64,000 nucleotides of DNA from an uncultured Acidimicrobiia bacterium (GCA_963786955.1 CAWBAT010000005.1:1664001-1728000); one strand, 5' to 3'; positions 7,534 through 43,358 are shown, counted from the first letter of the stretch. Numbers and translations are program-made. Notes: generated by a model from the letters alone, not told the origin.

Positions 7534-7568
7534 TCCCCAGCCGGGGGCATCTCAGAAAATACTTTTCT

Positions 7569-7740: not shown

Positions 7741-7782
7741 GGCTTCAGTCTATTCGATGGTGAAGCTCGAAATGCTGGATCT

Positions 7783-9084: not shown

Positions 9085-9130
9085 TAGCTAATCACCAATA
9101 CGTTGCGTCTTTCAGGTTTTTAGACGGATG

Positions 9131-10787: not shown

Positions 10788-10810
10788 GTTGAGCCTCCTT
10801 TCCTAAACAA

Positions 10811-11692: not shown

Positions 11693-11723
11693 ACAAGCTC
11701 CCAGGACGACTGGTCTGGCAGTC

Positions 11724-12074
11724 TTATAGTGACTCGCTGCCGGGTACCCGATTCGTGATCGATGCCATCGAGAGAATCGGTTGCCTCTTTAACGCCAACA
11801 AGGAGATCATGAAGGTCATCAGGCAAACCCAATCCAGCCAGAGAAGTGTCTTACGAGACAGGACCAAAGGCACGATGGGATTAAAGAGTACGGCAATAGC
11901 TAGGAATCCAGTTGCCCACATGTACTTGCCGACACGAGCCGCCTGCGTGAGGACTAGAAGGGCAGAGACACAAACAACCAATTCCAACAATACTTGGTAG
12001 GGCGCCGCAAGGCTTAACCCCGCCAGAAGCAACACCACGCTGGAAACCCACTTCATGATATTCGTTAGCATCAT
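11724..12074 (-). CDS. Small membrane protein, DUF6804-like
   Basis: About four hydrophobic segments with an AIAVLFNPIVP motif; AGAGG RBS before ATG 12074. Confidence 0.7.
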   Translation of the reverse strand: MMLTNIMKWVSSVVLLLAGLSLAAPYQVLLELVVCVSALLVLTQAARVGKYMWATGFLAIAVLFNPIVPLVLSRKTLLWLDWVCLMTFMISLLALKRQPILSMASITNRVPGSESL

Positions 12075-12178
12075 TAACCTCTTTTCTTCTGTTCTATTTA
12101 GACCCCTGATGATTGTTGCAGGAAATCGGAAAGGGTAGGCATGGTCGTTACCCACCAAACTAAAGTGACCAACCCGGT

Positions 12179-12499
12179 TCAAATTCCGACGCGAGCAGCT
12201 ATCTTGTGAAAGGTCGAGTTGGAGACTTCATAGGTTTGAACCCGGGGAGTCCCCTCAATCACGTTTGCCAGGACTTTCAGCACATCTTTATAAAGACCGC
12301 GGTTGTAGATATCCGCCTGGTCTTTTTGATCCCACAAACTGATTCCCACGGCCTCTGCTCCGCCTGGGACAATAAAAGTAATCTCATCCTGGAAGCCGTT
12401 CTGTTTACGAAGCATGGGAAGAACTTGTTTCTCCATAGTATGGGTAAATTCCGCAACGCTATTGGGTTTCAGACTCAGGTTAACTGTCCGAGCAAACAT
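12179..12499 (-). CDS. Dimeric alpha-beta barrel (antibiotic biosynthesis monooxygenase-like) protein
   Basis: MFARTV..LKP...VLPMLRKQNGF...ISLW...YEV pattern; AAGGAG RBS. Confidence 0.75.
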   Translation of the reverse strand: MFARTVNLSLKPNSVAEFTHTMEKQVLPMLRKQNGFQDEITFIVPGGAEAVGISLWDQKDQADIYNRGLYKDVLKVLANVIEGTPRVQTYEVSNSTFHKIAARVGI

Positions 12500-12589
12500 G
12501 GCAAACTCCTTAGGTTGTTGTCTAAGAGGAGTAATCTCAGATAACCTGACTTAGTTCAGATAGTCTGGGAAATGACTAAAAGTTCTCTT

Positions 12590-12628
12590 CTAGTTAACCA
12601 TTAGAAGTTAATTAGCTTTACGTGTCAA
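12590..12628 (-). promoter_or_regulatory. sigma70-type promoter with a palindromic operator, divergent from the XRE gene
   Basis: Minus strand TTGACA (12628-12623), 17 nt, TCTAAT. Palindrome CTAATTAAC-N8-GTTAACTAG (12615-12590) straddles the -10 box. Confidence 0.75.
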
Positions 12629-25385: not shown

Positions 25386-26009
25386 GGGTGGTTTTCTAGT
25401 GGGATAATCCCTGCCTTTCAGAAAGTTCACTTGGCTGATAGGGACCGTGAAACAGGAATTCGGGCGCATTTGAACTCCTGCTACAGGCTACTCGCGTTTC
25501 CCCTTAATCCTTATTGTTTTTCGAGCTCAATGTTAGTACAGCTCCGCTGAGTCGGTGTCAAGACAAAAGCTTTTGCGTGTCCACCCAAATTAGAAATGTC
25601 CGGTTTGTTGTCTACCCGCAAAACTCAGGGCAGGTGATTCTGCGGCAGTAGGTCACGGATCACAACAAGTCCGCGCCACAAACGCGTAGAGGATTTGAAA
25701 GCAAAGTGTACGAACGGTGAAGAAGTCCGTCCCCCAGGAGACTTACATGTAGTCGAGTCCAAAAACGCATCGGGTTTTTTACTTTTGAGTCGCCTTGCTA
25801 TATACGCTCCGCTAAGGTACATTTTAATCCGCCATCGACTTGGTCATCCTTACCAAGCGAGCTCAGAAAGACCTGGAGTAAGTGCCGATACCCTTCGCTA
25901 AAAAGTTGGACGGCCGGATTAGTTTTGCGGTGAAGTTTGCAAACCGGGGCTCTAACGACGAAACATTGAAGGGTGAGCGGTCCAACCTGCGCCATGTCAA
26001 TTCGTTCCC

Positions 26010-26190
26010 CTATTTTGACCCTACCGCCTGTGGATGTGCGTGATGAACTTTTCGCCCGTCTCGGCACGCTTGGCCAGGGTAGCAGTCTCATCCTTGGCCC
26101 GACCCACCATGTCCAGCTTGATCCCCCCATGGAGAATTTCTGGGCAATGGTGAACACTATCCTGCAACCCAATGCGGCGACTGGTTCCCA
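26010..26190 (+). pseudogene. C-terminal remnant of a uroporphyrinogen-decarboxylase/MtaA-family protein
   Basis: DVRDELFARLGTLGQGSSLILGPTHHVQLDPPMENFWAMVNTI matches the terminal motif of that family; the N-terminus is missing. Confidence 0.6.
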
Positions 26191-26220
26191 ACAGGTGCCA
26201 ATCTCGCAGAACATAAAGTT

Positions 26221-27816
26221 ATGCATCTTGCTTGTTGGGATTGGTTGATTATCGCGGTCTATGTGATTGTCGTGGTTTCGGTGGGACTGCGGGCGGGAAC
26301 CAAGCAGCACACCAGCGAGGGCTACTTCCTTGCCGGCCGGCAGCTCCGCTGGCCCTTTATCGGCTCCTCCATCTATGCCGCCAATATTTCCACTGAGCAC
26401 TTTGTGGGGCTGGCGGGCACCGCTTATGCCATCGGCCTGGCTATCGGCGCTTATGAATGGATTGCGGTATTCTGCTTGATTCCTCTGATCGTGCTGTTCC
26501 TGCCGCTGTACATCCGGGCACGGATTTACACGGTTCCCGAGTTCCTCGAAATGCGCTTTGGTCCCGGTGTGCGCCTGGTGTTCTCGGGTTTTATGATCGC
26601 CATGTCGGTGGTGGCGAAGATCGCCATTTCACTCTGGGCCGCCGCAATTGTTTTTTCCGATGTTCTGGGGTGGGACCACCTTACGGTCATCTGGGTGATC
26701 GGCTTGGTGACAGCTCTTTACACCATGAAAGGCGGGCTGAGCGCGGTGGTCTATACCGACGCGGTTCAGACGTTGGTTTTGCTGGCCGGCGCAGCGACGC
26801 TGACCCTCATCGGCCTGCACCACGTCGGAGGCTTTAGTGGCCTGCGGGCGAAGGTTGATCCGGTAATGTTCTCAATGGTACGGCCGGCCACGGACCCGAA
26901 CTTGCCCTGGCCCGGTATCTTCATCGGAGTGTTTTTCGTTGGGGCATTCTACTTCTCCATGGATCAGGTGTTGGTGCAACGGGTCTTTGCGGCTAAAGAC
27001 TTGAATGAGGGGCGGCTTGGCGCCGTGTTTTGTGCCTTCCTCAAGACGCTCAACCCGCTGTTGCTAGTGCTGCCGGGGTTGATCGCCAAGGCTCTTTATC
27101 CCCACCTGGAACGCGCGGACGATGCTTTCCCGGCGCTCTTGAAGAACCTGATGCCGACGGGATTGCTGGGGCTTACGGTTGCGGGTCTGACGGCGGCCTT
27201 GATGGGCCATTTGAGCGCGACCTACAATTCTATCGCCACACTCTTCACGCGGGATTTCTACCTGAAGTTTCATCCTGCAGCCACGCAAGAAAGGCAGATC
27301 CGGGTCGGCCGCATCGCGGTGCTGGTTGTTTTTGTTCTCGGCGCGATTTGGGCGCCAATCATCGGCAGCTATAAATCGCTATTCATCTATCTCCAGAACG
27401 TTCAGGCCTATCTCATGATGCCTTTTGCTTTCATTTTCTTTTTTGCGGTGTTCTGGAAGCGCATCAACTCGCCGGGGGCACTGGTTTGCATGATCGCTGC
27501 CTTTGTCCTGTGCCCGGTGATGATGGTGAACAACCAACTCAAACCCGAGCAGCAATGGTTCCAGTTTCTGAATACGCCGTATCTCATGCCCTGGCTTCAC
27601 CGCGCCATGCTCGTGACCCTGTTATGTATAACTTTGTTGGTGGGAATTTCGCTGTTGACCGCCCCGCCGCCACCGGCGAAACTCGCGGGCACCACAATTG
27701 AAGGATTGTGGGCCCGGAAGATAAACGAGCCGCGAGTGTTTGTCCTGAAAGACTATCGCCTGTGGCTCACGATCGTCTCTCTTGCCACGGCGGTGATGTG
27801 GTACTTCATGAGATGA
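26221..27816 (+). CDS. Sodium:solute symporter (SSS, sugar type)
   Basis: YFLAGR, ANISTEHFVGLAG, TVPEFLEMRF, GGLSAVVYTD, DQVLVQR; many TM segments. Confidence 0.96.
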   Translation: MHLACWDWLIIAVYVIVVVSVGLRAGTKQHTSEGYFLAGRQLRWPFIGSSIYAANISTEHFVGLAGTAYAIGLAIGAYEWIAVFCLIPLIVLFLPLYIRARIYTVPEFLEMRFGPGVRLVFSGFMIAMSVVAKIAISLWAAAIVFSDVLGWDHLTVIWVIGLVTALYTMKGGLSAVVYTDAVQTLVLLAGAATLTLIGLHHVGGFSGLRAKVDPVMFSMVRPATDPNLPWPGIFIGVFFVGAFYFSMDQVLVQRVFAAKDLNEGRLGAVFCAFLKTLNPLLLVLPGLIAKALYPHLERADDAFPALLKNLMPTGLLGLTVAGLTAALMGHLSATYNSIATLFTRDFYLKFHPAATQERQIRVGRIAVLVVFVLGAIWAPIIGSYKSLFIYLQNVQAYLMMPFAFIFFFAVFWKRINSPGALVCMIAAFVLCPVMMVNNQLKPEQQWFQFLNTPYLMPWLHRAMLVTLLCITLLVGISLLTAPPPPAKLAGTTIEGLWARKINEPRVFVLKDYRLWLTIVSLATAVMWYFMR

Positions 27817-27971
27817 TGCCTGTGGAAATACAAAGACGAACAATATGGAAATGAGAATCCCCCCGTTGAAATATCTGGCATGAATAGCGATTCATTCCGA
27901 CGGGACTGCTTGTCCCCGTCTCGAGGGGCGGCTTCAATGGTTTCTTAGCGAACTTTGTTCACGGCACGACT

Positions 27972-29021
27972 ATGGTCCCCCATCCGTACAAATCCTTAAC
28001 GCATTTCAGCGGGCACATTACCTTCTTCTTAGTGACATGCCTTTGTTTGATATTCCGAGTTCTGGAAGTTGAACCGACTTCTCTGAAACGGTACGAATTT
28101 TCTTTGATTCGAATGGGAACCGCATTCCGGATGGTGTTTTATGCCCAGGATCCCGGCATAGCTTCTCAGGCGAGCACCGAAGCCTTTGAGCGCATTGAAC
28201 AGCTGGAACAGATCCTCAGCGATTACCGTGAGGAGAGCGAGCTCAACAGAATTTGTGGGACAGCCTTCAGGGCTCCCCAACGAGTGAGCCCTGAACTGTT
28301 CCATGTTCTGGAAAGGTCGTTGCACTTTTCAGAGCTTTCCGAAGGAACTTTTGATGTAACGATTGGCCCCGTGGTCAAACTTTGGCGGGAGGCGCGACGC
28401 GAGAAGCGTCTGCCAGATGCCGAGCGGTTGTCAAGAGCGCGATTGGCCGTGGGTTTCCAGAATGTCGTGTTGGACTCCGAAACGGGTACGGTATTCCTGA
28501 AACGGGACGATATGAAACTGGATCTGGGAGCCATCGCAAAAGGCTATGCCGCTGACCAGGCACTGGCTGTGTTGAGGGGATATGGCATCAATCGAATACT
28601 AATAGACGCGGGGGGAGATCTATCCTTAGGTGACCCGCCTCCAGGATCCCGGGGATGGGATATTCGGATTCACGAATGGGATAAAGAGCCAAGATCAGAA
28701 GGCCTATGGCTACGGTTGCGCAACGTGGGAATAGCGACTTCGGGCGACACTTTTCAGTTCTTGGAGAAGCAAGGGGAGCATCTTTCTCATATCATCAACC
28801 CTTCTGACGGCATAGGAATAAGGGATTCTGTCAGCACAACGGTGATTGCCCAAGATGGAATTTCAGCGGATGCTCTGGCGACAGCGTTGAGCATTCTTCC
28901 GGTATCTAAGGCATTGGCGTTGGCAGATTCCCTGGAAAACGTGTCTGCATTTCTCGTTCGGCGCAATGGGAATAAGGTATTGTGCTTCAAATCGAGAAAT
29001 TTTCCAGCGTTTTCCAGATAG
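27972..29021 (+). CDS. apbE: FAD:protein FMN transferase (ApbE)
   Basis: MGT, GTFDVTIGP, LDLGAIAKGYAAD, AGGD, ATSGD, HIINP, ADALATA. Confidence 0.95.
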   Translation: MVPHPYKSLTHFSGHITFFLVTCLCLIFRVLEVEPTSLKRYEFSLIRMGTAFRMVFYAQDPGIASQASTEAFERIEQLEQILSDYREESELNRICGTAFRAPQRVSPELFHVLERSLHFSELSEGTFDVTIGPVVKLWREARREKRLPDAERLSRARLAVGFQNVVLDSETGTVFLKRDDMKLDLGAIAKGYAADQALAVLRGYGINRILIDAGGDLSLGDPPPGSRGWDIRIHEWDKEPRSEGLWLRLRNVGIATSGDTFQFLEKQGEHLSHIINPSDGIGIRDSVSTTVIAQDGISADALATALSILPVSKALALADSLENVSAFLVRRNGNKVLCFKSRNFPAFSR

Positions 29022-29030
29022 ACTGGCTCC

Positions 29031-30627
29031 ATGCCGGCGGGAAAAATAACGATCCGGATTCAGAAAAATAAGGGGCTAGAATTCAGCGTGTTTCAGAGAC
29101 TGTTTACGACCAAATCCGTTTTCTCCAATAAGAAGGGCCTAACCACGTTCGTTACGGGTTTGATTTGTGGGGTGCTCCTGCTCTTTGCCGGGCATACTGG
29201 CATGGAGAAAACCTCGACTGACAGGTTCTGTGACCAGAGCTGCCATGTCCATCCCCAAGCAACTCAGAGCTGGATCAAGTCGACTCATTTCTCGAATAAA
29301 CGCGGGGTGGTCACCCATTGCATCGAGTGCCACCTTCCTGCCGGGGGTGTCGAGTTTTACACCGAAAAAGCTCGCTTGGGAACTCAGGACATTTATGGCA
29401 AGGTGTTCAAAGATATTTCCAAAATCGATTGGCAGGCCAAGCGCAGCCTGGATCTTGCCAAGACCTTCACTTACGATTCCGCTTGCATAAGATGCCATGC
29501 CCAGCTATTCACAACCGGGCTTTCCAAGAAAGGGGGCGGATGGGCATCTTCATTACCAGCGTTTCAGGGACAAGATGACCTGTATCAACTGCCATTTGTT
29601 TGTTGGACATTACAGCGCGAAAAAGGCGGAGGAAATCAGCGATATTGAAGCCGACGAAATGAAAGATTTCCCTGAGGAGGTGGAGGGGTTTAAGAGTTAC
29701 GCAGAAAAGATACCGGGAACAAATGTCAAGTTTGCGATGGCAGCCCTACCGGGTGGAACCTTCATGCTGGGCAGCCCCGAGTCCGAGCCCTATCGGCGCC
29801 TTGACGAAGGGCCCATCCACAAAGTAAGAGTGAGTTCTTTCTGGATGGGCCGGGTTGAAGTCAGCTGGCGAGAGTACGAAATTTTCCTGCTCCAGCGCGG
29901 CACCAAGGGGAAACAGGAAGAAAACGGTCGGATCCGTGGGGCAGTTACCGGCCCAACTCCCCCTTACGGTTCGCCTGACCAAGGGTGGGGACGGGGATCG
30001 CGACCCGCTGTCACTATGACGCATCACGCGGCCATGATTTACTGCGAATGGCTTTCTTCCGTTACAGGAAAAACATACAGGCTTCCGACTGAAGCCGAAT
30101 GGGAATATGCTTGTCGTGCCGGAACGAGTAGTCCCTATTTCTTTGTTGGGGATCCCTCTCGCTTTACGGGCCGGTCCTGGATCAATAAGATCCGCGGGAT
30201 TGAGACCTCACCCATTGCGGAGTTCGCAGTCTATCGATCTACCAGCGCTTTGCGTACCAGTCCACCCAAAGCCAGCAAGGCGAATCCCTGGGGGTTGGTG
30301 AATATGCTCGGAAATGTGAAGGAGTTCTGCCTGGATTGGTATGATCCAAAGTCGTACTCCAGTGATTCTCTTATCGAAGAAGTCAGCAATCCGCACGGAC
30401 CCGATTCCGGTACTGAGCACGTCACACGTGGAGGTTCGTTTAAGAGTGATGCCATCGATTTGCGTTCGGCAGCCCGGGACTATACCCGGACAAATGACTG
30501 GCTCATGACAGATCCCCAATCCCCCAAGAGCATCTGGTGGTACTCTGACAGTAATGACGTCGGGTTCAGGGTAGTGCGGGAATTTGAGGGTCAAGTCTTG
30601 GAAGTAACATCTAATAAGTCGAACTGA
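29031..30627 (+). CDS. NapC/NirT-type tetraheme cytochrome c fused to an FGE-sulfatase (SUMF1) domain; +1 frameshift at about 29531
   Basis: TM helix followed by CDQSCH, CIECH, CIRCH and, after the G-run shift, CINCH. Then FMLGS, YRLPTEAEWEYACRAG, NPWGL.NMLGNV.E, RGGSF, VGFRVV. Confidence 0.85.
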
Positions 30628-30682
30628 TTTTCATCCAACTCATCAAACAAGAAGTCGAAGCAGTCATCATAAGGAAAAACAT

Positions 30683-32003
30683 ATGATCGATGAAAAGAAG
30701 AAGTCCAATTCCAGTCGCCGCGATTTTATGGGTGCGGTAACGGCCATTGGGGCGGGGATGTTATTGACCCGGTGCAGTAAGAGTTACTCCGAAAATGGCC
30801 TTCGTGGACAAAGCGCCGGACGGACCACTGCTCAAGGCAGGATTGGTAGGCTGTGGGGGGAGGGGAACCGGGGCTGTCCAGGATTTCTTAAAAGCGGGAC
30901 CCAGTCTGCAAATTTCAGCTCTGGCAGATGTCTTCGCGGACAAAGTCCAGGACACCCGAAAAACCCTGGAAGAAAAGGCCAACCAGAAGATCGCCGATGA
31001 TCATTGCTTTGTGGGATTTGATGCCTATAAAAAGTTGATTGATTCGGGAGTCGATGTGGTGATTCTGGCCACTCCGCCGCATTTTCGGCCGGAACACTTT
31101 GAAGCTTCCGTTGATGCCAAGAAACACGTCTTTATGGAAAAGCCAGTGGCCGTCGACCCTGTAGGGGTGCGTTCGGTCTTGGTCTCAGGCGAAAAAGCGA
31201 AGGCGTTCGGATTGTCAGTGGTCACGGGCACTCAGCGGCGGCATCAGCGCTCCTATATCGAAACCTACAATCGGATTGCGAATGGAGCCATCGGCAAGAT
31301 CGTGGCTGCCGACGTCTGTTGGAATCAGTCACAGCTCTGGTATAAGGAGAAACAGAAAGGCTGGTCCGACATGGAGTTCATGATTCGCGACTGGGTCGAT
31401 TGGTGCTGGCTTTCCGGCGATCACATTGTTGAACAGCATGTCCATAACCTCGACGTAGCCCACTGGTTTCATTGGAGGGACTCCCGAGAAGGCGGTTGGC
31501 ATGGGGGGCCGGGCGCGACGCGTGACAGGGGATCAGTATGACTTCTTTGCGGTGGACTACACGATGGCCGATGGAACCCATATTCAAAGCATGTGCCGGC
31601 AGGTGGATGGCTGTAACAACAATGTGTCTGAGTATGTCGTCGGAACGGGAGGGTCATCTAACTGCAAAGACACGATCTTTGACAAAGACGGGAAAGTCGT
31701 CTGGCAATACCAGGAACCGGTAAAGAGCCCGGGAAGTCCGCCTTCAGTCCATATGAGCAGGAGCATGTCGACCTGGTTAATGCGATTCGTACGAATCAGC
31801 CGATCAACGAAGCGACCAACATAGCCAAATCTACTCTTGTTGCGATCATGGGAAGGATTGCGGCTTACACAGGGCTAGAGGTCACTTGGAATCAAATGAT
31901 GGAGTCAAGCTTGAGGCTGGGACCGAAGGAATACGTCATGGGTCCGGTAGACATCAAGGCCGAAGTGCCCGTTCCTGGCAGCGCCAAGAATTCCAAAGGG
32001 TAG
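30683..32003 (+). CDS. Tat-exported Gfo/Idh/MocA oxidoreductase, three apparent frameshifts
   Basis: SRRDFM Tat motif, GLVGCGGRGTGA, ILATPPHFRP.H, FMEKP, GDHIVEQHVHNLD. Spread over ORFs 30683, 30795, 31501 and a final frame ending at TAG 32003. Confidence 0.88.
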
Positions 32004-32204
32004 GCATGAGCCACGGAAATTTCTGGATCATTCGATTTCCCGTCCTTATTTTTGGTTTTCCTGCCGGTTAAAGCGGGTCAACATCGCCTGATGTGCGTCC
32101 AAAGTTTTTTTGCACCCGACTGAGAGCGGCCTTCTATGCGTGCCGATTAAGCCCCTGATAAGAACAAGCTATGGCGGTCACAGACCTTCGCAGCAGGGGA
32201 CGAT

Positions 32205-33861
32205 TCATCCCAAATCCAAAGTCAATCGTGTTACCGAAGCAGCTGGAAATCGATAGATTAATGTTTTTCCCCTACTCTGGATCACGCTCTCTTTGGGCTC
32301 TACAGCGCGGGGATTATCGAAGCTGTTGTAAGCGTGAATATCACTGGCCGTCAATGTTGTGCCCCGGCCCGACAAAACCGATGCAGAACGGATCGCGATC
32401 TCTGCTTCCCGTTCCTGGTTTGTGTCCGGGTTGACGACGGTCAGCACCAGCCGTTTCTGTTGAATTGATGCTGACCCGGCCAATCCCCCAAAAGAGGCCG
32501 GCTTGCCCAGACGGGTGTAACTTACCTGAGGGCCGGAAAAGAGCGTGCGAACCGCCTGGTTTCCTTGATGGGCCGCATACATATCGAAGACATGGTAATT
32601 GGGTGTCAGAAGGAATCGTTCCTCATGAGCCGCGAACAGCGAATGCAGGCAGTTGATCAGTTGAGCCACATTGGCCATGGCAACCTTATCGGCATGGCGT
32701 ATGAACGTGTCTAACGTTAAGGCCGCGAGCAGTGCATCACGCAGTGTCGACGTCTGGCCATACAGATGAGTGGGATCTGCCTCACTGCCGGATTTATGCC
32801 AGGCACCCCATTCGTCCACGACCAATTTGACACGATGCTGGTGATCAATCTCGCCCATAATAGACCAGTGTTTCATGATGAGAGTTTCCATTTGATCGGC
32901 CTCACGCAGCAGTTCGTACCAGTCTTCGACGGAAAATTTGATCGCATCCCCTTTACTGGCGACCCAGTCGGTATTCTGCCCTTTGCCGACATTCCAGGAA
33001 TAGTGGTGCATTGCCCACCCGTACAGATTGTTAATTTGATCTTTTCCTTTTTCGGTCAGTTTGAGAAAAAAACGACGGGTCCATTCTGTATCGCCACCAT
33101 TGGGCCCCGCTCCAATGATGGAGAGATCCACACCGTATCGTGGGATCCAGGCTGTAAAGCGGCGAAATTCCGTGGCGTACTCCTCAGGCGTGAAATTTCC
33201 ACCACAGCCCCAGGGTTCATTCCCGATTCCCCAATAACGAACCCCAAAAGGGTTCGAAGTGCGCCTCCTTTCGCTCGCAGTTCAGAAAGAGTCGTGCTAC
33301 CGGCAGGGGAATTACAGTATTCCACCCACTCGTCGAAATCTCTGGGGGTCAGACTTCGGACGTTGGCTGCCAGGTAAGGTTGCGCGCCGACCTGCCTGCA
33401 AAAACGGATAAATTCGTTTGTGCCAAACATGTTTGGATCGTATCTTTGGGGTCCAGACAATATCTTTCGGGAAGATTGGGATCATCAGTCCAGAAGTTAG
33501 TGCGACGCGGACGTTGATTGCGTGGCCCCACGCCATCATGCCAGTTATAGCTGTCGGCAAAACATCCACCCGGCCAACGAATGACTCCTGGCTTTAGACG
33601 GCGTAAGGCGTCTACTAGTTCCTTGCGTATCCCTTCATAATTCGGAATCTTGGAATTCTCCCCGACCCACACTCCATCGTAGACCACTCCTCCGAGGTGT
33701 TCCACGAAATGTCCGAACAGATCCGGTGATACCGCTGCGACCGGTTCTCCCGCCAGAATCTCGATTCTGGAGTCGGTTGCCCGTAATGATCGGGGTCCAA
33801 ACAAGACAGCACTTCCAATGACTACGTTTTTGACAAATGATCTGCGCTTCATTGTTGACAT
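32205..33861 (-). CDS. GH51 alpha-L-arabinofuranosidase, Tat signal, frameshifted
   Basis: KRRSFV, FGHFVEHLG..VYDG, RWPGGCFAD.Y.W, FGTNEF, W.EYCN, VDEWG.WH, MANVAQLIN.L across three ORFs. Confidence 0.9.
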
Positions 33862-33986
33862 GTTTCGCCTCACGCCAAATCGCAGACATACAGAAACATC
33901 GGCCAACTCCTGATCCGTCCTTTGAGCGTCTGCCCCACGGGTCGGTAGAAATCACCAAAAAATTCCACTACGTCGGGGATAAAACT

Positions 33987-36104: not shown

Positions 36105-38216
36105 TCACCTCAAGCGCTCGGTAAAAGCTGAGCTGCCGCCATGCAGATGGCAACTGCTCAAGTCGCATGACCGGGCTGTGCGCAGTGCCAACGCGCCACT
36201 CGGGCACGCCTCGGCGCAGCGCCGCCCCACTTCGCGAAGCCCCTCAGAGAGCGGCTTGCTGAACGGCACCGCAACCGTTACATCGAAGCCGCGTCCGATC
36301 ATGCTGACGCCGAGGGCCTCTCCGGCATTGGCCGCAATGCGCACGCAGGCGTCGCACAGGATGCACTTGCCCGGCTCATAGATGATCTCCGGGTGGGAGA
36401 GGTCCTGTGAGAACCGGCGGCGGGCGCCGGCAAAGTGGTACACATCGACGTTGTTTTGGGTTGCCAGAATGCGAACCTTGCAGCAGTCCGCTTTGCGGCA
36501 ACCGCAGGTCAGGCAACGCCGGGCCTCCCGTTGGGCGTCCGCTTCAGGCAATCCGTTCAAGACCTCGTCGAAGCTCGCCAGCCGGCGCTCGCTGTCGATC
36601 TCAGGCATGCGCACTCGCGCCGTCCTCTCGATTGCCCGGAAGATAACGGCCCGCTCGCCGTCATCGACCGGCCGCATTGCGATATCTCTCATCGCGGGTT
36701 CCCCCGTCACCCCTTCGCCTTTCAGGAACTGGTCGATCGATGCTGCGGCGATTCGTCCCGCGGCAACCGCGCGAACGGCGAGGTCCGCTCCAAGCACCGC
36801 ATCCCCACCGGCAAAGATTCCGGGCAGGTTCGTGGCCAGCGTTTTTTCATCAGCAGCGATCCCCCAACCGGTCACCTGCAACCCTTCGTGCTCTGCAACC
36901 GAGCGTTCCACCGCTTGGCCGATGGCGGCGATCACGGTCGAGCACTCGACGTAGAACTCGGAACCATCCACTGGTACTGGCCGCCTCCGGCCCGACTCGT
37001 CCGGTTCGCCCAACTGCATCCGCTGGCAGGTCAGCAACAGCCGATGGTTCCCATTGCGTTCGAGTCGCGTCGGCACCACCAGGAACTTGATGGAGACGCC
37101 TTCGGCTTCGGCTGCTTCGACCTCCTCCATCAAACAGGGCATCTCAGGCCTCGTCCGCCGATAGAGGATCTTCACCGCTTGCGTATCCAGTCGAACGGCC
37201 GAGCGGGCGCAGTCCAGCGCAGTATTGCCCCCACCGACAACGATGACATCCTCGCCGAGAGACGGCGGGTTGCCCTTTGCGACCAGCTCGAGAAACTCGA
37301 CCCCGGAGAGCGCGAGTTCCTCGCCCTCGCAGCGGAGTCCCTGGGCCTGTTGTGCTCCGATGGCGAGAAAAACCGCATCGTGGCTTTTCCGCAGCTCGGC
37401 TAGCGTGAAGTGCTCGCCCCAGCGCATACCCATGCGAAACTCGGCGCCAAGTTTCCGAATGACCTGGATCTCGGCATCGAGCGCATCTTTGGGCAGCCGG
37501 TACGCTGGAATGCCGTACCGCAGCATCCCGCCCGGAGCCGCCGCCGCGTCGAAGAGCGTGCAAGCATGCCCTTTCTGCCGCAGGAAATATGATGCTGACA
37601 GTCCCGCGGGACCAGCGCCGATGATGGCGACCGACTTGCCCGTTGCCGGTGCGCACAGCGGGACATAGGGATCGGCGGAGCGCCAGTCCAGATCGGCTGC
37701 GTAGCGGTGCAGAGCGCCGATCGCCAAGCCCTGGTCGAGTTGCGAACGACGGCACTCCTGCTCGCACAATCGCGGGCAGACCCGCCCCAGGGCACCGGGC
37801 AGCGCGAGCCGGTTAGTAATGACCTCCATCGAGCGCCGGTTGTCTCGCGTGGCGACCTCGTAAACGAACCCCGGAATGTCCAATCCGGCCGGACAGCGGG
37901 CCGCGCACGGGGCCACACATTCACCTGCGTGATCTGACAGCAGCAGCTCCAACGCTATTTTCCGCGCACGCCGCACGTCTTCGCTGTCTGTTGTCGCCAC
38001 CATGCCGTCGGATACGGGCAAGGCGCATGCCGGCGAGAGGGCGCGCCGGCCTTCAATTTGAACGGCGCACACAAAGCAGGATGCCACGGGTTCGAGCCCC
38101 TTTACGTGACACAGCGTCGGGATGCGAATCCCCAGCCGCTCCGCTGCCTCGAGCACGGTCGTCCCCGGTTCCACGTGGATGCTTCGGTTATCGATGGTCA
38201 GGGCAAGCGTTCCCAC
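36105..38216 (-). CDS. Fe-S flavoprotein: NuoG/HydA-like N-terminal clusters fused to a GltD/NfnB-type FAD/NADP(H) module (StnC/NsoC-like, truncated)
   Basis: IPTLC..SCFVC..PAC (2Fe-2S); LLSDH..C..PC...CP; GRVCP..CE..C; GAGPAG; GGGNTALD..YRRT; FAGGD; CLTCGC; KCILCDAC; CAEACPSGAL. Confidence 0.9.
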   Translation of the reverse strand: MGTLALTIDNRSIHVEPGTTVLEAAERLGIRIPTLCHVKGLEPVASCFVCAVQIEGRRALSPACALPVSDGMVATTDSEDVRRARKIALELLLSDHAGECVAPCAARCPAGLDIPGFVYEVATRDNRRSMEVITNRLALPGALGRVCPRLCEQECRRSQLDQGLAIGALHRYAADLDWRSADPYVPLCAPATGKSVAIIGAGPAGLSASYFLRQKGHACTLFDAAAAPGGMLRYGIPAYRLPKDALDAEIQVIRKLGAEFRMGMRWGEHFTLAELRKSHDAVFLAIGAQQAQGLRCEGEELALSGVEFLELVAKGNPPSLGEDVIVVGGGNTALDCARSAVRLDTQAVKILYRRTRPEMPCLMEEVEAAEAEGVSIKFLVVPTRLERNGNHRLLLTCQRMQLGEPDESGRRRPVPVDGSEFYVECSTVIAAIGQAVERSVAEHEGLQVTGWGIAADEKTLATNLPGIFAGGDAVLGADLAVRAVAAGRIAAASIDQFLKGEGVTGEPAMRDIAMRPVDDGERAVIFRAIERTARVRMPEIDSERRLASFDEVLNGLPEADAQREARRCLTCGCRKADCCKVRILATQNNVDVYHFAGARRRFSQDLSHPEIIYEPGKCILCDACVRIAANAGEALGVSMIGRGFDVTVAVPFSKPLSEGLREVGRRCAEACPSGALALRTARSCDLSSCHLHGGSSAFTERLR

Positions 38217-40058
38217 CTAAATCACCTCGATGGCATTGTCCTGGCAGGCCTGGAAACACATGTCGCAACGGGTGCAGAGGTTTCCGTCGATCTCGTGCTT
38301 TTCGTACGGGCGAAACTCAATCGCGCCAACCGGGCAGACCTGGGCGCACAAGGTGCAGCCAATACAATTGTCTTTCACGCGGTATTGAATCAGGGCCGGG
38401 CAGCGTCCGGCCGGGCAGCGCTTTTCGTGCAGGTGCGCCTCGTATTCCTCGCGGAAGTACCGCAATGTTGTCGCCACCGGGTTGGGCGCTGTCTGGCCCA
38501 GCCCGCACAGGCTGCCACGGCTGACATAGTCGGCCAGCGTTTCCAGTTTTTCCAGATCGTCCCTCCGGCCGTTCCCCTCACAGAGTCGCTCGAGAATCTC
38601 AAGCATCCGTTTGGTGCCGATCCGGCAGAACGTACACTTGCCACACGACTCGGCCTGTGTGAACTTTAGGAAGAAGCGGGCCATGTCGACCATGCAGTCA
38701 CGCTCATCAAGCACCACCAAACCGCCGGAGCCCATGATCACCCCCGTCTTGGCCAACGCGTCGTAATCGATTGGCGTGTCCGCCAATCGAGCCGGGATGC
38801 ATCCTCCCGACGGTCCCCCGATCTGGACGGCTTTGAACGTGCGGCCGTTTTTGATGCCGCCCCCGATCTCTTCTACAATCTCCCGGACGGTGACGCCCAT
38901 CGGCACCTCGATCAGGCCGCCGTGGTTGATCTTGCCGGCCAGTGAGAAGACCTTCGTGCCCTTGCTGCTCCCGGTGCCGAGGGCGGCGAACGCTTCTGGG
39001 CCGTTGCGAAGGATCCATGGCACGCATGCCAGGGTCTCAACATTGTTGATGAGGGTTGGCTGGCCACGGAAGCCCCGCTCGGCAGGATAGGGCGGGCGCA
39101 GCCTCGGCATCCCGCGCTGGCCTTCGAGCGAGAGGATCAACGCGGTTTCTTCACCACAGACGAAAGCGCCGGCTCCCTCCCGGACTTCAAGGCGGAGCGA
39201 GAATTGCGAACCCAGAATGCGTTCGCCCAGGTAGCCTCTTTGTTCCGCCTGTTGGATCGCCGACCGGATGCGCTGTACGGCGAGGGGGTATTCCGCACGG
39301 ATGTAGAAATAACCTTCCGCGGCCCCAATCGCGTGAGCTGCGATCATCAGTCCCTCGATCACGCGGTGTGGATCCGCTTCCAGCACCAGCCGGTCCATGA
39401 ACGCGCCCGGATCGCCCTCATCGGCGTTGCAGATGACGTATTTGGTTTTTCCGCTCTGCGCCCGGGTGACCGACCATTTTCGCCCCGTGGGGAACCCCGC
39501 GCCGCCGCGACCTCGAAGGCCGGAATTCGTGATCGCGGCAATCACCTTTTCCGGAGCCGATTCTTTCAGGCAGGTCGCCAGTGCCTGATATCCATCCCGG
39601 GCGATGTAATCGTCGATCTTCAGTGGATCGATCTCACCGCAGTTCTCGAGGACAATGCGCTTCTGTTTTCCGAGATACGCCGCCGCAGCGCCCGTGCTGC
39701 GGTCGAACCGGAACTCCTCCAAGTGCGGTCGGTCGCTGTCCGGCGCGACCCATCCCGCGACCCTCTCGGCCTGCCAGCGTGCCCACGCGCGAAGCCGGAG
39801 GGGGCGGAGGTGCTTCCTAGCAATCTGACGGGCCGTCCCGGGTGTCACGTTGCCATAGAGCGTGGTGCGGCCATCCGGCCCAACGACTTCCACCAGCGGC
39901 TCGCGATGACACATCCCGTTGCAGCCGACTGTCTTGACCACGCCATTCGCGCCGGCTTGTCGGGCCTCCTGCATCAGGACCGCGCGAACCGGCTCACTGC
40001 CGCTGGCGACCCCGCAGGAGCCGAGACCGATCCGGATCTCGACGGCGCCCCGTCTCAT
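38217..40058 (-). CDS. NuoF/HydB-like FMN NADH-binding subunit with an N-terminal thioredoxin-like 2Fe-2S and C-terminal 2x[4Fe-4S]
   Basis: CG.ASG...GCNGMC; LRGRGGAGFPTG; NADEGDPGAFMDR; GAGAFVCGEETAL; SCGKCTFCR; CIGCTLC..VCP, CTRCDMC..AC. ATG 40058 overlaps the upstream TGA. Confidence 0.93.
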   Translation of the reverse strand: MRRGAVEIRIGLGSCGVASGSEPVRAVLMQEARQAGANGVVKTVGCNGMCHREPLVEVVGPDGRTTLYGNVTPGTARQIARKHLRPLRLRAWARWQAERVAGWVAPDSDRPHLEEFRFDRSTGAAAAYLGKQKRIVLENCGEIDPLKIDDYIARDGYQALATCLKESAPEKVIAAITNSGLRGRGGAGFPTGRKWSVTRAQSGKTKYVICNADEGDPGAFMDRLVLEADPHRVIEGLMIAAHAIGAAEGYFYIRAEYPLAVQRIRSAIQQAEQRGYLGERILGSQFSLRLEVREGAGAFVCGEETALILSLEGQRGMPRLRPPYPAERGFRGQPTLINNVETLACVPWILRNGPEAFAALGTGSSKGTKVFSLAGKINHGGLIEVPMGVTVREIVEEIGGGIKNGRTFKAVQIGGPSGGCIPARLADTPIDYDALAKTGVIMGSGGLVVLDERDCMVDMARFFLKFTQAESCGKCTFCRIGTKRMLEILERLCEGNGRRDDLEKLETLADYVSRGSLCGLGQTAPNPVATTLRYFREEYEAHLHEKRCPAGRCPALIQYRVKDNCIGCTLCAQVCPVGAIEFRPYEKHEIDGNLCTRCDMCFQACQDNAIEVI

Positions 40059-40951
40059 ACGAGCTCCTTTTGCTCGACAATGTCCAGCGCTGCGCAGGCA
40101 CTCGCCGGGGTGAGGTTCCCAGCGGTATGGTCGTCGACCATGAGGACCGGCGCCAGGCTGCAGCACCCCAGGCACGCCACCTCGTCTACGGTGAACATCC
40201 TTTCCGGATCGGTATCGGCGTCTTCCGGAATCCGAAGTTGGCGGCGCAGTTCCTCTCCGATCTGTCGTGCTCCCGACACATGACAAGCCGTCCCATGGCA
40301 GACGCGGACGATGTGTCGGCCAACCGGCGACCGGCGGAACCGTGCATAGAAAGACGAGGTCCCCGCAATCTGTGCGGGTGTCACTTCCGTCAGCTCGCAG
40401 ACACGCGCAAGAGCTTCATCCGGCAGGTAGCGATAGAACGCTTGGATAGCTTGGAGAATCAGGATGGCCGATTCCTTGCTCCTGCCCTCTTTTTCTACGA
40501 TTCTGTCCACGAAGGTCAGGTCGATCTCGCCCGAGGCGGAAGCGCCGGAGAAAGGCCTCGCCACTGCGGCGGGCCCTCGGGCCGGTGGCGCTTCCAGTTG
40601 GACCAGCTTGCTCATCGTGACGGGACGACGGCCATCCAGCGCGATCCGCCATTTCGAACTCGCAACGAATGCCGACGCCGCGAGAATCAGCAGAATCGAG
40701 ATCCAGCCGCTCCTTACCTTGCGCGTGCGCCGGGCTCGCGTGACGCCATCCTGTAGGGCGGCGAGCTGCGGCGCGAACGACGAGTCGTTCTGAGCCTGTT
40801 TCTGCAGGGCCACGATGCGCGCGTCATCCTTGGGCGCCCGCAGGCGGGCAGCCACGTAGTCCGCGATCAAAACCAGGACGCACACCGCTACGAAGAACCC
40901 AGCGATTTTGGCCGCGGTCAGCGCCAAAGATCTCTGCCCGTTCGTGGTCAT
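40055..40951 (-). CDS. NuoE/HydC-like 2Fe-2S subunit with an N-terminal two-TM membrane anchor
   Basis: VCHGTACHV...ACLGCCSLAP. Preceded by hydrophobic IAGFFVAVCVLVLIA and WISILLILAASAFVAS segments. Confidence 0.9.
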   Translation of the reverse strand: MTTNGQRSLALTAAKIAGFFVAVCVLVLIADYVAARLRAPKDDARIVALQKQAQNDSSFAPQLAALQDGVTRARRTRKVRSGWISILLILAASAFVASSKWRIALDGRRPVTMSKLVQLEAPPARGPAAVARPFSGASASGEIDLTFVDRIVEKEGRSKESAILILQAIQAFYRYLPDEALARVCELTEVTPAQIAGTSSFYARFRRSPVGRHIVRVCHGTACHVSGARQIGEELRRQLRIPEDADTDPERMFTVDEVACLGCCSLAPVLMVDDHTAGNLTPASACAALDIVEQKELV

Positions 40952-41913
40952 ATCGCGGCTCCAGACTTCGTCTCGCGAGGGCATGCGGCGTAGCACCGCG
41001 CACAGTAAAAGCACTCTTTACGTACAGCCCGCATCTTCTCGATCGCACCGTACGGGCAGGCTTCCGCGCACAGCCCGCAGTCCAGCTCTGTGCTCGGGGT
41101 GATGGTGACGCCGCGTTTTGCCAGTCGAGTACACCAGGAGAGCAAGCCGCCGTACGGGCACAAGTAACGGCAATAGGGCCGCCCCACAAACATGCCCAGC
41201 ACCAAAAATCCTCCGCCGATCAGCATCATGTGAGCGAAGCCTTCTCTGCGGAAGAACCCCACGAACGGGTCGAACCGGCAAATGACGAAGTCACGTGAAA
41301 TGGCAGGCTTCACAGCGAGGAGAATGGCCAGCGCAAGATAAACGTACTTCAACAAACCTAGCGCGTTGTCCAGCCGGCGCGGCACCTGAACCGGCTTCAG
41401 GACAACCAATTCCTGTATTGCGCCCAGCGGGCAGACACCTCCGCAGAAAGCGCGGCCGAAAAACAGTGCCACCAATAACGGCAGGAAGAAGATCGCCGTG
41501 ACAACAATAGGAATCGAGTATCCCGGATCGGCGAGCGCCACCGCGACGTTCTGTATGGAGCCGATCGGGCAGATGCAGCCCTCCCGGTAGAATCCGAAAT
41601 AGGCCAGGCAGGCGACCGTCAGCGCCAGCACCCACTTCCGGCTGCGCTGGGACAGAACCAGCCACACGGAGATCCCCATGGCGGCCGCCAGCAGTACGAC
41701 GTCCAAGACCTGCAGCCAGTATTGCCGCGGCTGCGGCTTTTGGACCTCCGGGGTGACGTAGCCGCCCCCGATGGCTTCTGGTTGGGGGGCCGTTTCGACG
41801 GGACGCTCATAATGCATGGCCTGCCCCGGTGCCTTGCTGGCCAAGGTGAGGCCCAGCAGGACTAACGCCAGCAGTACCACTACGGAACGCCACGTTAACT
41901 TGATCGATTTCAT
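40948..41913 (-). CDS. NapH/MauN/NosR-C-like polytopic 4Fe-4S membrane protein
   Basis: GCICPIG, GRAFCGGVCPLG, RPYCRYLCPYG, CGLC..ACP, CFYCARC..ACP; N-terminal signal/TM; ATGA-coupled. Confidence 0.88.
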   Translation of the reverse strand: MKSIKLTWRSVVVLLALVLLGLTLASKAPGQAMHYERPVETAPQPEAIGGGYVTPEVQKPQPRQYWLQVLDVVLLAAAMGISVWLVLSQRSRKWVLALTVACLAYFGFYREGCICPIGSIQNVAVALADPGYSIPIVVTAIFFLPLLVALFFGRAFCGGVCPLGAIQELVVLKPVQVPRRLDNALGLLKYVYLALAILLAVKPAISRDFVICRFDPFVGFFRREGFAHMMLIGGGFLVLGMFVGRPYCRYLCPYGGLLSWCTRLAKRGVTITPSTELDCGLCAEACPYGAIEKMRAVRKECFYCARCYAACPRETKSGAAI

Positions 41914-43358
41914 GTTACTGGCTTCGCCGCCCCCCCGATCTCGAGAGCCTCTTTCACCTGCTCCTGCGCGATCGCGTCTTTTGGACATGCACTGGCGATG
42001 GCGCAGCGGTTGCAGTCGACGCAGAGGTTGTAGCGTACCTTCAGCACGATGGATCCGAGTCCCAGGGGTTCCTTGCAGCCCTTGACGCATATCCCGCAGC
42101 CGTCGCATTTCTCTTCGTCAATGATGTATTCGTAGAAGTTGTTGGCCGGGTCCTCGGGATCGATCAGGCCGATCGGTTTGCGCTCGATCGCGTCCCGCGG
42201 GCAAAGCTTCTCACTCGGCAGGCCCTTCTCGTCCACTGCGCTCTTGATGTTGTAGTAGGCGGGACAAATGTAGCAGCGGCCGCACTTGGAGAAGTTATTC
42301 ACCGCCCGAACGGCGGACTGCGACACGACGCACTCGCTCGTGCATAGGGTGCACACTTGGGCGCCCACCTCGCCGAGCCGGCTGTTGACGCACTTAGCCG
42401 CGTCAACCTGCCAGACGATCTGCCCGTTCGCCTTTTTAACCAGGTAGCCGGCACCGCCGGCAAACCCGAGAAGAACGGTGCCGCGAACCACCTTGCCCAA
42501 TGCGTCCCGTCTGGTAATCTCTTCGCTCATGGTCTGTGCGTCTTCTTCAAAAGCGAGGATCTCGAGCCTCACGGTGTCGGCGACATAGACCCGGCCGCGG
42601 GTGTCCACCGCGATATCCATGTTCTTGCAGTTGGGGTCGAACACGACCGTCGCAATCACCGAAAGCAGCTTCCCTTGGGAATCATAGACCTTCGCGCGCG
42701 GCTCGGCCTTCTCCGTGACATAGATGCGGTTGCGGCCGACGACGGTCACATTCGTCGGATTGCAGCAGCCTGAAAACCCCGACGGATCCAGCCCGTCGAA
42801 GCGGCCGATATGCCCCAGCAAATGGTCCTCCGGTGTGTAGCGCTCCACGCGGTGCTTGCCGGGATTCGCGGCGTGGATGATACCGTCGGCATCCACACTG
42901 AAATCCAGGACGCCGTTCGGGATCAGGAACCCCTGCATCCGGTTGTTCTTGCCGATATTGTTGAGAAACTTCCCGCCTGTCTCATAACGGCGTATCGCAC
43001 GGTCATTGGCGTCACCTATCAACACGCTGCTTCCGAGAAACCCGATCGCCGTCACGCGCCCGAGCCGCTCAGCGTCGCTCCACCTGTCCGCCAGGCGACC
43101 CTCGCCGTCGAAGATTTCCACCTGGCCCGCCTGGCCCACATACACCGAACCGTCGGCCGCAACCGCCACCGCATATCCCGGTTTGGAGGTGGGCCAACGC
43201 CGCTGGACCCTCCCGTCGGGGTCGAAGATCTTTAACTCTGAATCTCCGACGGCGTACAGGCGATTCCGCCCGTCCACGGCGATACTGCGTAATGTCTGGA
43301 CGAAGCGATCGGAGGCGTCTCCCTTCCCGCTGATGACTTGAACTTGCTTGTACTTCAT
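41910..43358 (-). CDS. NHL-repeat beta-propeller read in frame with a Tat-type polyferredoxin (NapG/MauM-like; internal ATG at 42530)
   Basis: NHL repeats (AVAVAADGSVYV, DIAVDTRGRVYVAD) with GFSGCCNP. Then MSEEITRRDALG..TM.. and CGRCYICP, CDGCGICV.GC, CVDCNRC...ACP. Confidence 0.85.
   Translation of the reverse strand: MKYKQVQVISGKGDASDRFVQTLRSIAVDGRNRLYAVGDSELKIFDPDGRVQRRWPTSKPGYAVAVAADGSVYVGQAGQVEIFDGEGRLADRWSDAERLGRVTAIGFLGSSVLIGDANDRAIRRYETGGKFLNNIGKNNRMQGFLIPNGVLDFSVDADGIIHAANPGKHRVERYTPEDHLLGHIGRFDGLDPSGFSGCCNPTNVTVVGRNRIYVTEKAEPRAKVYDSQGKLLSVIATVVFDPNCKNMDIAVDTRGRVYVADTVRLEILAFEEDAQTMSEEITRRDALGKVVRGTVLLGFAGGAGYLVKKANGQIVWQVDAAKCVNSRLGEVGAQVCTLCTSECVVSQSAVRAVNNFSKCGRCYICPAYYNIKSAVDEKGLPSEKLCPRDAIERKPIGLIDPEDPANNFYEYIIDEEKCDGCGICVKGCKEPLGLGSIVLKVRYNLCVDCNRCAIASACPKDAIAQEQVKEALEIGGAAKPVT

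Follow-up and report, generated by a model that had tools for sequence, protein, structure and literature searches.

A conserved unit of apbE, a cytochrome-fused FGE-like gene and a Tat-exported Gfo/Idh/MocA dehydrogenase: a possible flavinylated periplasmic electron chain

We analysed a 64,000-nucleotide stretch from the genome of an uncultured Acidimicrobiia bacterium (GCA_963786955.1, CAWBAT010000005.1:1664001-1728000; hereafter the window), in which three neighbouring genes on the plus strand appear to form a unit. They are apbE, encoding a protein of the FAD:protein FMN transferase family (FAD, flavin adenine dinucleotide; FMN, flavin mononucleotide); a gene joining a NapC/NirT-type membrane cytochrome to a domain folded like the formylglycine-generating enzyme (FGE) and sulfatase-modifying proteins; and gfo, encoding a Gfo/Idh/MocA dehydrogenase with a signal for twin-arginine translocation (Tat). 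Pfam matches confirm this gene order, with a sodium:solute symporter (SSS) gene upstream, as it was laid out in an earlier note made from the sequence alone (Table 1). The end of apbE lies 9 bases from the start of the NapC/NirT open reading frame (ORF), the ORF of the FGE part overlaps that of the NapC part in a different frame, and 55 bases separate the FGE part from gfo. The reading we favour, with a probability of about 0.55, is that ApbE would place FMN on a threonine in a conserved loop of the FGE-like domain, and that this FMN would re-oxidise the NAD(P)H that Gfo keeps locked inside it, sending the electrons via the haems to quinone.

Table 1. Features of the apbE, NapC/NirT::FGE-like and gfo unit, in positions of the window
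Feature	Position	Strand	Evidence or remark
SSS transporter (sodium:solute symporter)	26221-27816	+	PF00474, E 1e-75
apbE (FAD:protein FMN transferase family), intact	27972-29021	+	PF02424, E 4e-71, profile positions 1-265 of 266
NapC/NirT part of fusion, frame 0	29031-29531 (ORF 29031-29648)	+	PF03264, E 3e-23
Haem motif 1, CDQSCH (atypical CX3CH)	29229-29246	+	direct reading
Haem motif 2, CIECH	29319-29333	+	direct reading
Haem motif 3, CIRCH	29484-29498	+	direct reading
Frame break in fusion, one base too many in aagaaaggggg	29526-29536	.	ORFs pass from frame 0 to frame 1
Remainder of fusion, frame 1: haem motif 4, linker, FGE-fold domain	29533-30627 (ORF 29497-30627)	+	PF03781, E 1e-43
Haem motif 4, CINCH, beyond frame break	29581-29595	+	direct reading
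Loop G-A-V-T-G-P-T; candidate FMN-bearing Thr is codon 29956-29958	29938-29958	+	family signature
RGGSF	30427-30441	+	direct reading
Second family signature T-D-P-Q-S-P-K-S-I-W-W-Y-S, near C-terminus	30508-30546	+	absent from ordinary FGE homologues
gfo, Tat-exported Gfo/Idh/MocA dehydrogenase gene, four frame segments	30683-32003	+	PF01408, E 1e-12
Twin-arginine motif S-R-R-D-F, Gfo signal peptide	30713-30727	+	direct reading

The product of apbE is a full-length member of its family (PF02424) and probably transfers FMN from FAD to a threonine or serine of a target protein. Its N-terminus is hydrophobic, ITFFLVTCLCLIF, with an LVTC box (read by eye). In the fusion, Pfam identifies Cytochrom_NNT and FGE-sulfatase and nothing else; in particular, there is no Pfam match to any known flavinylated domain (FMN_bind PF04205 and others). 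The cytochrome part has the make-up of NapC/NirT proteins, an N-terminal membrane helix (residues 4-42 in the model of P0001, a 93%-identical homologue) followed by four c-type haem motifs, and NrfH is its nearest solved cytochrome (2j7a, E 5e-8). The first haem motif has the unusual CxxxCH spacing already noticed earlier. The eight Cys and four His of these motifs are invariant in 97 homologues, and family membership suggests that this part may exchange electrons with the membrane quinone/quinol pool.

The FGE-sulfatase fold of the second part is supported by the PF03781 match, by a profile match to the FGE structure 6s07 (E 1e-34) and by Foldseek, which returns PvdO and FGE with probability 1.00. 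Nearly all of the 120 listed homologues of this part are ~480-560 residues long and match both PF03264 and PF03781. The copper-binding Cys pair of FGE is missing beyond RGGSF, as the earlier note stated: the window has no Cys there, and none is conserved at that place in 26 aligned homologues. Because this catalytic pair is missing, we would not class the domain as a formylglycine-generating enzyme. Homologues are named 'SUMF1/EgtB/PvdO family nonheme iron enzyme' or 'formylglycine-generating enzyme' by their sources, annotations that are probably wrong for this family. The Protein Atlas places them in generic FGE-sulfatase clusters, with nothing more specific.

The fusion seen in the earlier note is one intact gene in relatives, but in this assembly it lies in no single open frame, its NapC part being in frame 0 and its FGE part in frame 1. 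Frame breaks in two of the three genes (the fusion and gfo) had gone unseen; those of gfo consist of one surplus base near 30784, one surplus base near 31467-31471 and one missing base after 31716. We aligned Logan contigs of four public runs from four studies (X1, X4, X5 and X6) to positions 28900-32100. Identity of the contigs to the window is ~95-100%, and the source sample may itself be among the four runs. They have one letter fewer at 29528 or 29532 (X1, X4, X5), one fewer at 30784 (X1, X6), one fewer at 31467 or 31471 (X1, X5, X6) and a G inserted behind 31716 (X1, X4). Each of these one-base differences re-opens the frame and was seen in every run covering the break concerned, and no other insertions or deletions are listed among the public contigs across 28900-32100. 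In one X4 contig of 151 bases, the frame-restoring base is the only difference from the window. Because public contigs carry frame-restoring differences at all four places, the breaks are most simply explained as consensus errors of the assembly or very recent lesions. The intended design appears to be one intact fused gene, because the best homologue, P0001, is intact (512 amino acids) and 93% identical to the protein pieces of the window. Fragmentation of the same kind occurs at an acidobacterial locus (L004): the apbE beside its NapC::FGE-like gene (G004:C2:465499-466336) is in three frame pieces in that assembly, and its Gfo gene is likewise in pieces.

To place the unit in a wider family, we drew 79 loci from contigs of one genome per species and aligned them with hmmalign. 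Two signatures define a family of 56 loci: a loop of the form D-A-[VI]-[TS]-x-[PA]-[TS]-x-P-Y, and D-P-Q-x-P-K-S-x-W-W near the C-terminus. Both are absent from the ordinary FGE homologues that make up the other 23 loci from the same search. The two groups differ in their genomic partners. Of the 56 family loci, 39 have a Gfo gene no more than 500 bp away, versus 0/23 ordinary homologues (Fisher 2e-9), and 19 have apbE at up to 2 kb, versus 0/23 (Fisher 5e-4), although kin are not independent in either comparison. Twelve of the family loci are NapC-fused; the remaining members occur either as single proteins or joined to cytochrome c domains of the PSCyt1 or cbb3 type. In a sample of 301 genomes of the phylum to which the window belongs, we found the long form in five, and all five have apbE, one intact fusion ORF and an intact Tat Gfo gene in this order. 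The five fusion ORFs encode 507-547 amino acids with four haem motifs and the loop x-A-x-[TS]-G-P-T-P-P-Y-G. We regard the conserved apbE, cytochrome::FGE-like and Tat-Gfo unit as real with hardly any reservation. The SSS transporter, which the earlier note had placed upstream of the unit, does lie there in the window but is not conserved, with no homologue in the 79 related loci or in the five orthologous ones, and it appears to be local context outside the conserved unit.

The fusions to other cytochromes have an N-terminal extension of one or two PSCyt1 or cbb3-type cytochrome c domains, not NapC (L019, L022, L028, L018, L026, L034), and are found in Verrucomicrobiota, Planctomycetota and Bryobacteraceae. 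Fusion of the FGE-like domain to unrelated c-type cytochromes in other phyla fits a role in electron relay. The FGE-like ORF of another locus (L014) has a long N-terminal extension without haem motifs. At a Bacteroidetes locus (L001: 13944-15200, 11240-13936), two Gfo paralogues and a ThuA-like gene (PF06283, trehalose utilisation) come after a NapC::FGE-like gene, which ties the unit to glycoside 3-dehydrogenases of the ThuAB type. By the source names of the closest homologues, the organism of the window belongs to the Terriglobia/Acidobacteriota.

The first signature is the candidate ApbE site. Counting back from its last residue (position 0) in the 55 of 56 family loci that have the loop, position 0 is Thr in 43 and Ser in 12 and thus Thr or Ser throughout (55/55). 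Asp occupies -6 in 52 loci, Ala -5 in 45, Val or Ile -4 in 50 and Thr or Ser -3 in 50; position -2 is variable (Arg 25, Gly 13, others 17) and -1 is Pro in 46 and Ala in 9. According to excerpts of a 2025 ApbE review, ApbE recognises D-x-x-[S/T]-G-A-[S/T] and attaches FMN to its final residue; a D-to-A change has minor effects, and G-to-A or A-to-V retains ~50% flavinylation (PMC12052999). An exact D-x-x-[ST]-G-A-T occurs in loci L001, L005, L006, L015 and L046 and in proteins P0107 and P0115. Six loci have Gly-Ala at -2 and -1, namely the five with the full canonical motif and L007 (Val at -3), and none of them has an adjacent ApbE, while all 19 ApbE-adjacent loci have Pro at -1. This distribution is in keeping with a specialised transferase that serves the deviant x-P-T site, canonical sites being left to a housekeeping enzyme, but phylogeny is a confounder here. 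A relaxed form of the motif was found in 49/56 family proteins versus 1/23 generic FGE proteins. The strict motif was found in none of the neighbouring proteins (0/43 Gfo, 0/17 ApbE, 0/14 TIM-barrel), and on this ground we reject the view that ApbE modifies the Gfo of the unit. In the Gfo Rossmann consensus, we take the stretch D-V-V-I-L-A-T-P-P to be part of the core of that fold.

The key motif proposed at the outset, AVTGPT, is present in the window and overlaps the ApbE motif, but the Gly of TGPT is variable (Arg in 25/55) and the leading Asp is absent from the window copy. A test had been proposed of whether TGPT, SGPT or TRPT is conserved specifically in ApbE-linked homologues. The loop is indeed conserved, up to its final Thr or Ser, but it is not confined to apbE-adjacent members. 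The comparison of motif with apbE proximity is largely favourable all the same, since it is family members, and not ordinary FGE homologues, that show linkage to apbE. In AlphaFold models, the invariant loop is the least confident internal segment both of the P0001 fusion and of the intact stand-alone paralogue encoded at G000:C5:90916-92055. The fusion model has a predicted local distance difference test score (pLDDT) of 80, a predicted template modelling score of 0.82 and a confident FGE core, and its pLDDT falls below 50 at residues 272-299 (loop) and 473-485 (W-W segment). The paralogue model (pLDDT 85) averages 51, 46 and 57 in ten-residue blocks over residues 71-100 (loop). Such low confidence would be expected if the loop were ordered only by a cofactor or a partner.

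We identified an ApbE in all 50 family genomes tested. In the phylum sample, ApbE is present in 31/31 family-positive genomes versus 157/270 others (Fisher 2e-7, again with kin not independent), tallies that take in genomes flagged as unpublished (G098; G195 and G073 among the ApbE-positive). At least 15 of the 31 family-positive genomes have an ApbE gene no more than ~3 kb from the FGE-like one, among the 150 of 320 ApbE matches listed. A tree of 43 ApbE domains, 20 of them FGE-adjacent, was built by quick search with Shimodaira-Hasegawa-like approximate likelihood ratio test (SH-aLRT) support and no bootstrap. It places 18 of the 20 FGE-adjacent ApbEs in one group (SH-aLRT 98), with the window apbE inside it. 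By record titles, this group spans Acidobacteriota, Planctomycetota, Bacteroidota, Verrucomicrobiota and Gemmatimonadota, and it holds none of the 20 other ApbEs, which come from eleven genomes that bear the family; five of these genomes are also represented on the tree by an adjacent ApbE. Thus, a dedicated ApbE lineage appears to accompany the FGE-like module in five phyla.

The genome of the window (5.65 Mb, 9 contigs, 93% complete) encodes three apbE genes, two of which adjoin pairs of FGE-like and Gfo genes, and has no match to FMN_bind or to NqrB/RnfD at this completeness. Taken without regard to completeness, 20 of the 50 family genomes likewise have ApbE but no FMN_bind match, and a module-adjacent ApbE is present in 11 of these 20 versus 6 of the 30 others. 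The second module of the window genome (L083, G000:C5:84001-99000) is intact, with Gfo at 5544-6845 (-), a stand-alone FGE-like gene at 6913-7980 (-) and a divergent apbE at 8399-9607 (+). Its FGE-like loop reads D-A-V-T-R-P-T, and its Gfo is of the Tat type (PF01408, PF22725, PF02894). Beside it lie genes for a GMC oxidoreductase (10041-11756) and a protein like subunit 3 of gluconate 2-dehydrogenase (11996-12628), another periplasmic sugar-oxidising pair. The third apbE (L084:7610-9256, -) follows a different Tat Gfo (L084:9357-10772, -; G000:C9:228360-229772), with no FGE-like gene. The C-terminal half of this Gfo contains N-W-W-A-G-A-T; [D/N/K]-x-x-A-G-A-T occurs in 119/120 homologues, 12 of which read D-W-M-A-G-A-T. 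With its Ala at -3, the site comes close to the canonical ApbE motif, and the enzyme may be flavinylated in cis. The subfamily was found in 5/301 genomes of the phylum sample, with apbE alongside in 3/5.

The third protein of the unit belongs to the Gfo/Idh/MocA family by its Rossmann domain, matched by PF01408 in the piece at 30795-31541. The C-terminal pieces, taken singly, have no Pfam match; they resemble the C-terminal part of adjacent Gfo proteins of related loci. The twin-arginine motif noted earlier is present, and RRx[FL] occurs in all 29 adjacent Gfo frames that pass a filter for length and position. The enzyme is probably exported by Tat and may carry a tightly bound cofactor. Periplasmic oxidation of a sugar, as first suggested, is compatible with a genuine Tat Gfo, but the nearest solved relatives are inositol dehydrogenases (profile, E 3e-26), for which reason the presumed substrate is better given as a sugar or cyclitol. 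A Tat xylose-isomerase-like TIM barrel (PF01261) is encoded near 14 related loci. No TIM barrel adjoins the window unit, and its neighbours are glycoside hydrolases (a six-hairpin glycoside hydrolase, a GH51-type arabinofuranosidase and GH127).

Taken together, the three genes could serve periplasmic oxidation of a sugar or cyclitol with transfer of electrons to the quinone pool. Tat would export the Gfo/Idh/MocA enzyme already folded and holding a locked NAD(P), like glucose-fructose oxidoreductase, and its reduced cofactor could then not be exchanged. A periplasm-facing ApbE would link FMN by a phosphoester to the last Thr of (D/G)-A-V-T-G-P-T in the FGE-fold domain. NAD(P)H is a hydride donor, haems accept single electrons, and a flavin is the usual converter between them; we place the FMN between Gfo and the haems for this reason. 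The tethered FMN would act as second substrate of Gfo, accept the hydride from the bound NAD(P)H and pass electrons one at a time to the four c-type haems in the NapC/NirT part, and these would reduce a membrane quinone. In other lineages, FGE-like proteins that stand alone or carry mono- or dihaem class-I cytochromes may instead pass electrons to soluble cytochrome c or oxidases. Flavinylation itself, which way the electrons flow, the locking of the cofactor and the nature of the substrate are inferred.

With somewhat less assurance, at a little short of even odds, we extend this reading to the family as a whole. FGE-fold 'flavin-arm' proteins would then be a new and widespread class of ApbE substrates, with a Pro-containing site read by an ApbE lineage of its own. 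They may be the missing re-oxidases of Tat Gfo/Idh/MocA enzymes with locked NAD(P), coupling periplasmic sugar or cyclitol oxidation to quinone (NapC-fused members) or to cytochrome c (PSCyt1-fused and stand-alone members) in at least five phyla. A Gfo that carries the site in an insertion would be a sister solution.

Several observations weigh against a flavinylated relay. No flavin has been observed, and the evidence is comparative throughout. The loop departs from the canonical five-position ApbE site: Pro replaces Ala at -1 in 46/55 and Gly is kept at -2 in 13/55 (Arg in 25). The window copy, G-A-V-T-G-P-T, has Gly at -6 as well as Pro at -1, and its closest relatives also lack the Asp at -6. 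We found no test of Pro at -1 in the flavinylation literature searched. The FGE fold is not a known flavin-binding fold, and searches of solved structures with the FGE-like domain, by sequence profile and by fold, returned FGE, PvdO, PorK, EgtB-type and similar proteins and no flavoprotein. Low model confidence in the loop is open to other causes. The gene apbE is adjacent in 19/56 family loci and in 1/12 NapC-fused loci, and therefore a housekeeping ApbE must be assumed in Bacteroidales. The adjacent ApbEs of L027 and L031 fall outside the dedicated group, and the third apbE of the window genome indicates that linkage of ApbE with Gfo does not by itself point to an FGE-like protein. The cross-genome tests overstate significance, as relatives are not independent, and two of the three genes of the unit are frame-broken in this assembly.

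An alternative we consider unlikely, and yet worth keeping in view, is that the FGE-like domain is free of cofactor and acts as a docking or maturation adaptor holding Gfo on the cytochrome or the membrane. The loop and the DPQxPKSxWW segment would then be a protein-protein interface, and ApbE would act on some different target or have a different task, for example flavin trafficking or the hydrolysis of FAD in the periplasm. The FGE fold has non-catalytic scaffold members (PorK, PvdO, the Treponema variable protein), the loop is rich in proline (P-T-P-P-Y) and off the ApbE motif at -1 and -2, and apbE is non-adjacent in 37/56 family loci. A flavin-trafficking, FAD-hydrolysing ApbE homologue is described in the abstracts of PMC4767422 and PMC4436053. 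However, an adaptor would offer no chemically plausible route from the hydride of bound NAD(P)H to one-electron haems, and it would leave unexplained the ApbE lineage that travels with the module in five phyla, the invariant terminal Thr or Ser and the exact canonical sites of some members. Nor does any other neighbour bear the motif, and this genome has no FMN_bind or NqrB targets. It is highly improbable that the domain is itself an enzyme, an oxidase of the FGE, EgtB or PvdO kind that acts on the Gfo product or another periplasmic substrate while the haems supply or remove electrons. The names of its homologues, the strong PF03781 match and FGE enzymes as nearest solved relatives are in favour of such an enzyme, but the copper-binding Cys pair is missing in the window and in aligned homologues, and ApbE and the family-specific loop would be left without a role. 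The EgtB-type iron site presumably resides in the DinB domain, which is not part of the fusion.

It is also possible, although distinctly improbable, that the breaks are real and that the unit of this genome is a decaying remnant made of pseudogenes, with the intact second module (G000:C5:89.5-93.6 kb) as the functional one. The four breaks fall within 2.5 kb and two more lie in the neighbouring GH51-type arabinofuranosidase gene (-), which is in three frames (32205-33131, 33056-33460, 33349-33906). Thus, the breaks cluster within 29500-33906, while elsewhere in the window ORFs of 3.1-4.9 kb stay open, and an intact set of apbE, FGE-like and Gfo genes is present in the same genome. Such clustering may point to a long-read assembly with low coverage at this place or to genuine decay. 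Against decay, all four breaks of the unit are single-base and at least two are in short homopolymer runs, the usual pattern of long-read consensus errors; contigs from the four studies read through every break at their ~95-100% identity; and the protein pieces have kept their 93% identity to the intact homologue. Decay would in any case bear on this copy alone and not on the nature of the unit. The flavinylated relay of the earlier note is in our view favoured by the loop signature, the linkage to apbE, the dedicated ApbE lineage, the cytochrome fusions and a genome without the usual ApbE targets, but its flavin is inferred only.

A scan of positions 26000-32400 for promoters and terminators found fewer sites than in shuffled sequences and no terminator after gfo, and is uninformative on operon structure. 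Further along the window, a block on the minus strand (36105-43358) has a G+C content of 0.61-0.64, compared with ~0.52 on both sides. The proteins encoded there are GltD-like (2Fe-2S/FAD), NuoF-like (FMN/Fe-S) and NuoE-like (2Fe-2S), together with additional 4Fe-4S proteins; the block may represent an acquired redox complex, soluble and linked to NAD(P)H.

Recent work recognises glycoside oxidation at C3 by periplasmic Gfo/Idh/MocA enzymes as a broad pathway for breaking down glycans. The Tat-exported enzymes make 3-keto-glycosides with tightly bound NAD, and excerpts of the two studies do not settle what re-oxidises the cofactor in vivo, naming cytochromes as one option (Liu 2021, PMC8121099; Nasseri 2024, bioRxiv 10.1101/2024.03.25.586180). 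The unit offers a concrete, testable answer to how locked NAD(P)H could be re-oxidised, and would turn net periplasmic sugar oxidation into an input to respiration. If this is correct, ApbE biology gains a carrier fold outside the flavoprotein folds, a specialised ApbE lineage and a recognition site with Pro at -1, which surveys using [S/T]GA[S/T] would miss. The accessible part of one survey counts 6230 genomes with parts for extracytosolic flavinylation and no characterised system (Meheust 2021), and modules of apbE, FGE-like and Gfo genes may explain some of these.

The unit is best filed as a form of ApbE-dependent extracytosolic electron transfer. Word searches of Meheust 2021, Huang 2024 and the 2025 ApbE review found no mention of FGE, sulfatase, Gfo or NapC in their main texts, although the large supplementary domain tables of Meheust might list these families. 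Our search for literature pairing ApbE or flavinylation with formylglycine or Gfo/MocA found nothing relevant. Thus, the unit is undescribed in the literature searched, which does not make it absent from print. It shares with the known ApbE-flavinylated extracytosolic proteins (FMN_bind of NqrC, RnfG, NosR and PplA; DUF2271 and DUF3570; Flavodoxin_4 and FMN_red variants) the position of apbE beside a presumed target, and a target loop that ends in Thr or Ser and overlaps D-x-x-[S/T]-G-A-[S/T]. Flavin and cytochrome modules are also combined, a pattern present in the part of Meheust 2021 available to us. Unlike those proteins, the carrier of the unit has an FGE fold, its site mostly has Pro at -1 with a variable -2, an ApbE lineage of its own goes with it, and its proposed job is to re-oxidise the locked cofactor of a partner.

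Like the tetrahaem quinol dehydrogenases NapC, NirT, NrfH and CymA, the cytochrome part matches PF03264, has a single membrane helix at its N-terminus and carries four c-type haem motifs. It differs from these in the fusion to a 300-residue FGE-fold domain, in the CX3CH form of the first haem motif in the acidobacterial branch, and in the proposed flow of electrons towards quinone rather than from quinol. The FGE-like domain has the fold and profile match of FGE, PvdO, PorK/GldK and the C-domain of EgtB, but the family lacks the catalytic Cys pair, has two extra invariant segments (the loop and DPQxPKSxWW) and keeps other genomic partners.

The dehydrogenase can be compared with periplasmic enzymes of its family that keep their cofactor locked, namely Zymomonas glucose-fructose oxidoreductase and the glycoside 3-oxidising Bacteroides BT2158 and Alistipes AL3, with which it has in common a Tat signal, the Gfo/Idh/MocA fold and, as proposed, periplasmic sugar oxidation. 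Among solved structures, the window Gfo is nearest to inositol dehydrogenases. According to the excerpts consulted, a TIM barrel gene lies nearby in the BT and AL clusters, as it does in 14 loci related to the unit. Such 3-keto-glycoside pathway clusters (BT2156-2160, AL1-5) are defined by a Gfo enzyme accompanied by a DUF1080 hydrolase and/or a sugar-phosphate-isomerase-like lyase. Glucose-fructose oxidoreductase, BT2158 and AL3 recycle their cofactor by reducing a second sugar, whereas the cytochrome partner and ApbE of the unit point to net oxidation that feeds respiration. ThuB belongs to the Gfo/Idh/MocA proteins and has a non-homologous accessory subunit, and LacABC is FAD-based. Like the unit as we read it, ThuAB and LacABC oxidise glycosides in the periplasm, with electrons passing to cytochrome c in the part of the source consulted (PMC8121099). 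Compared with ThuAB, the accessory subunit of the unit is FGE-like and not ThuA, its cytochrome is fused, and ApbE is involved.

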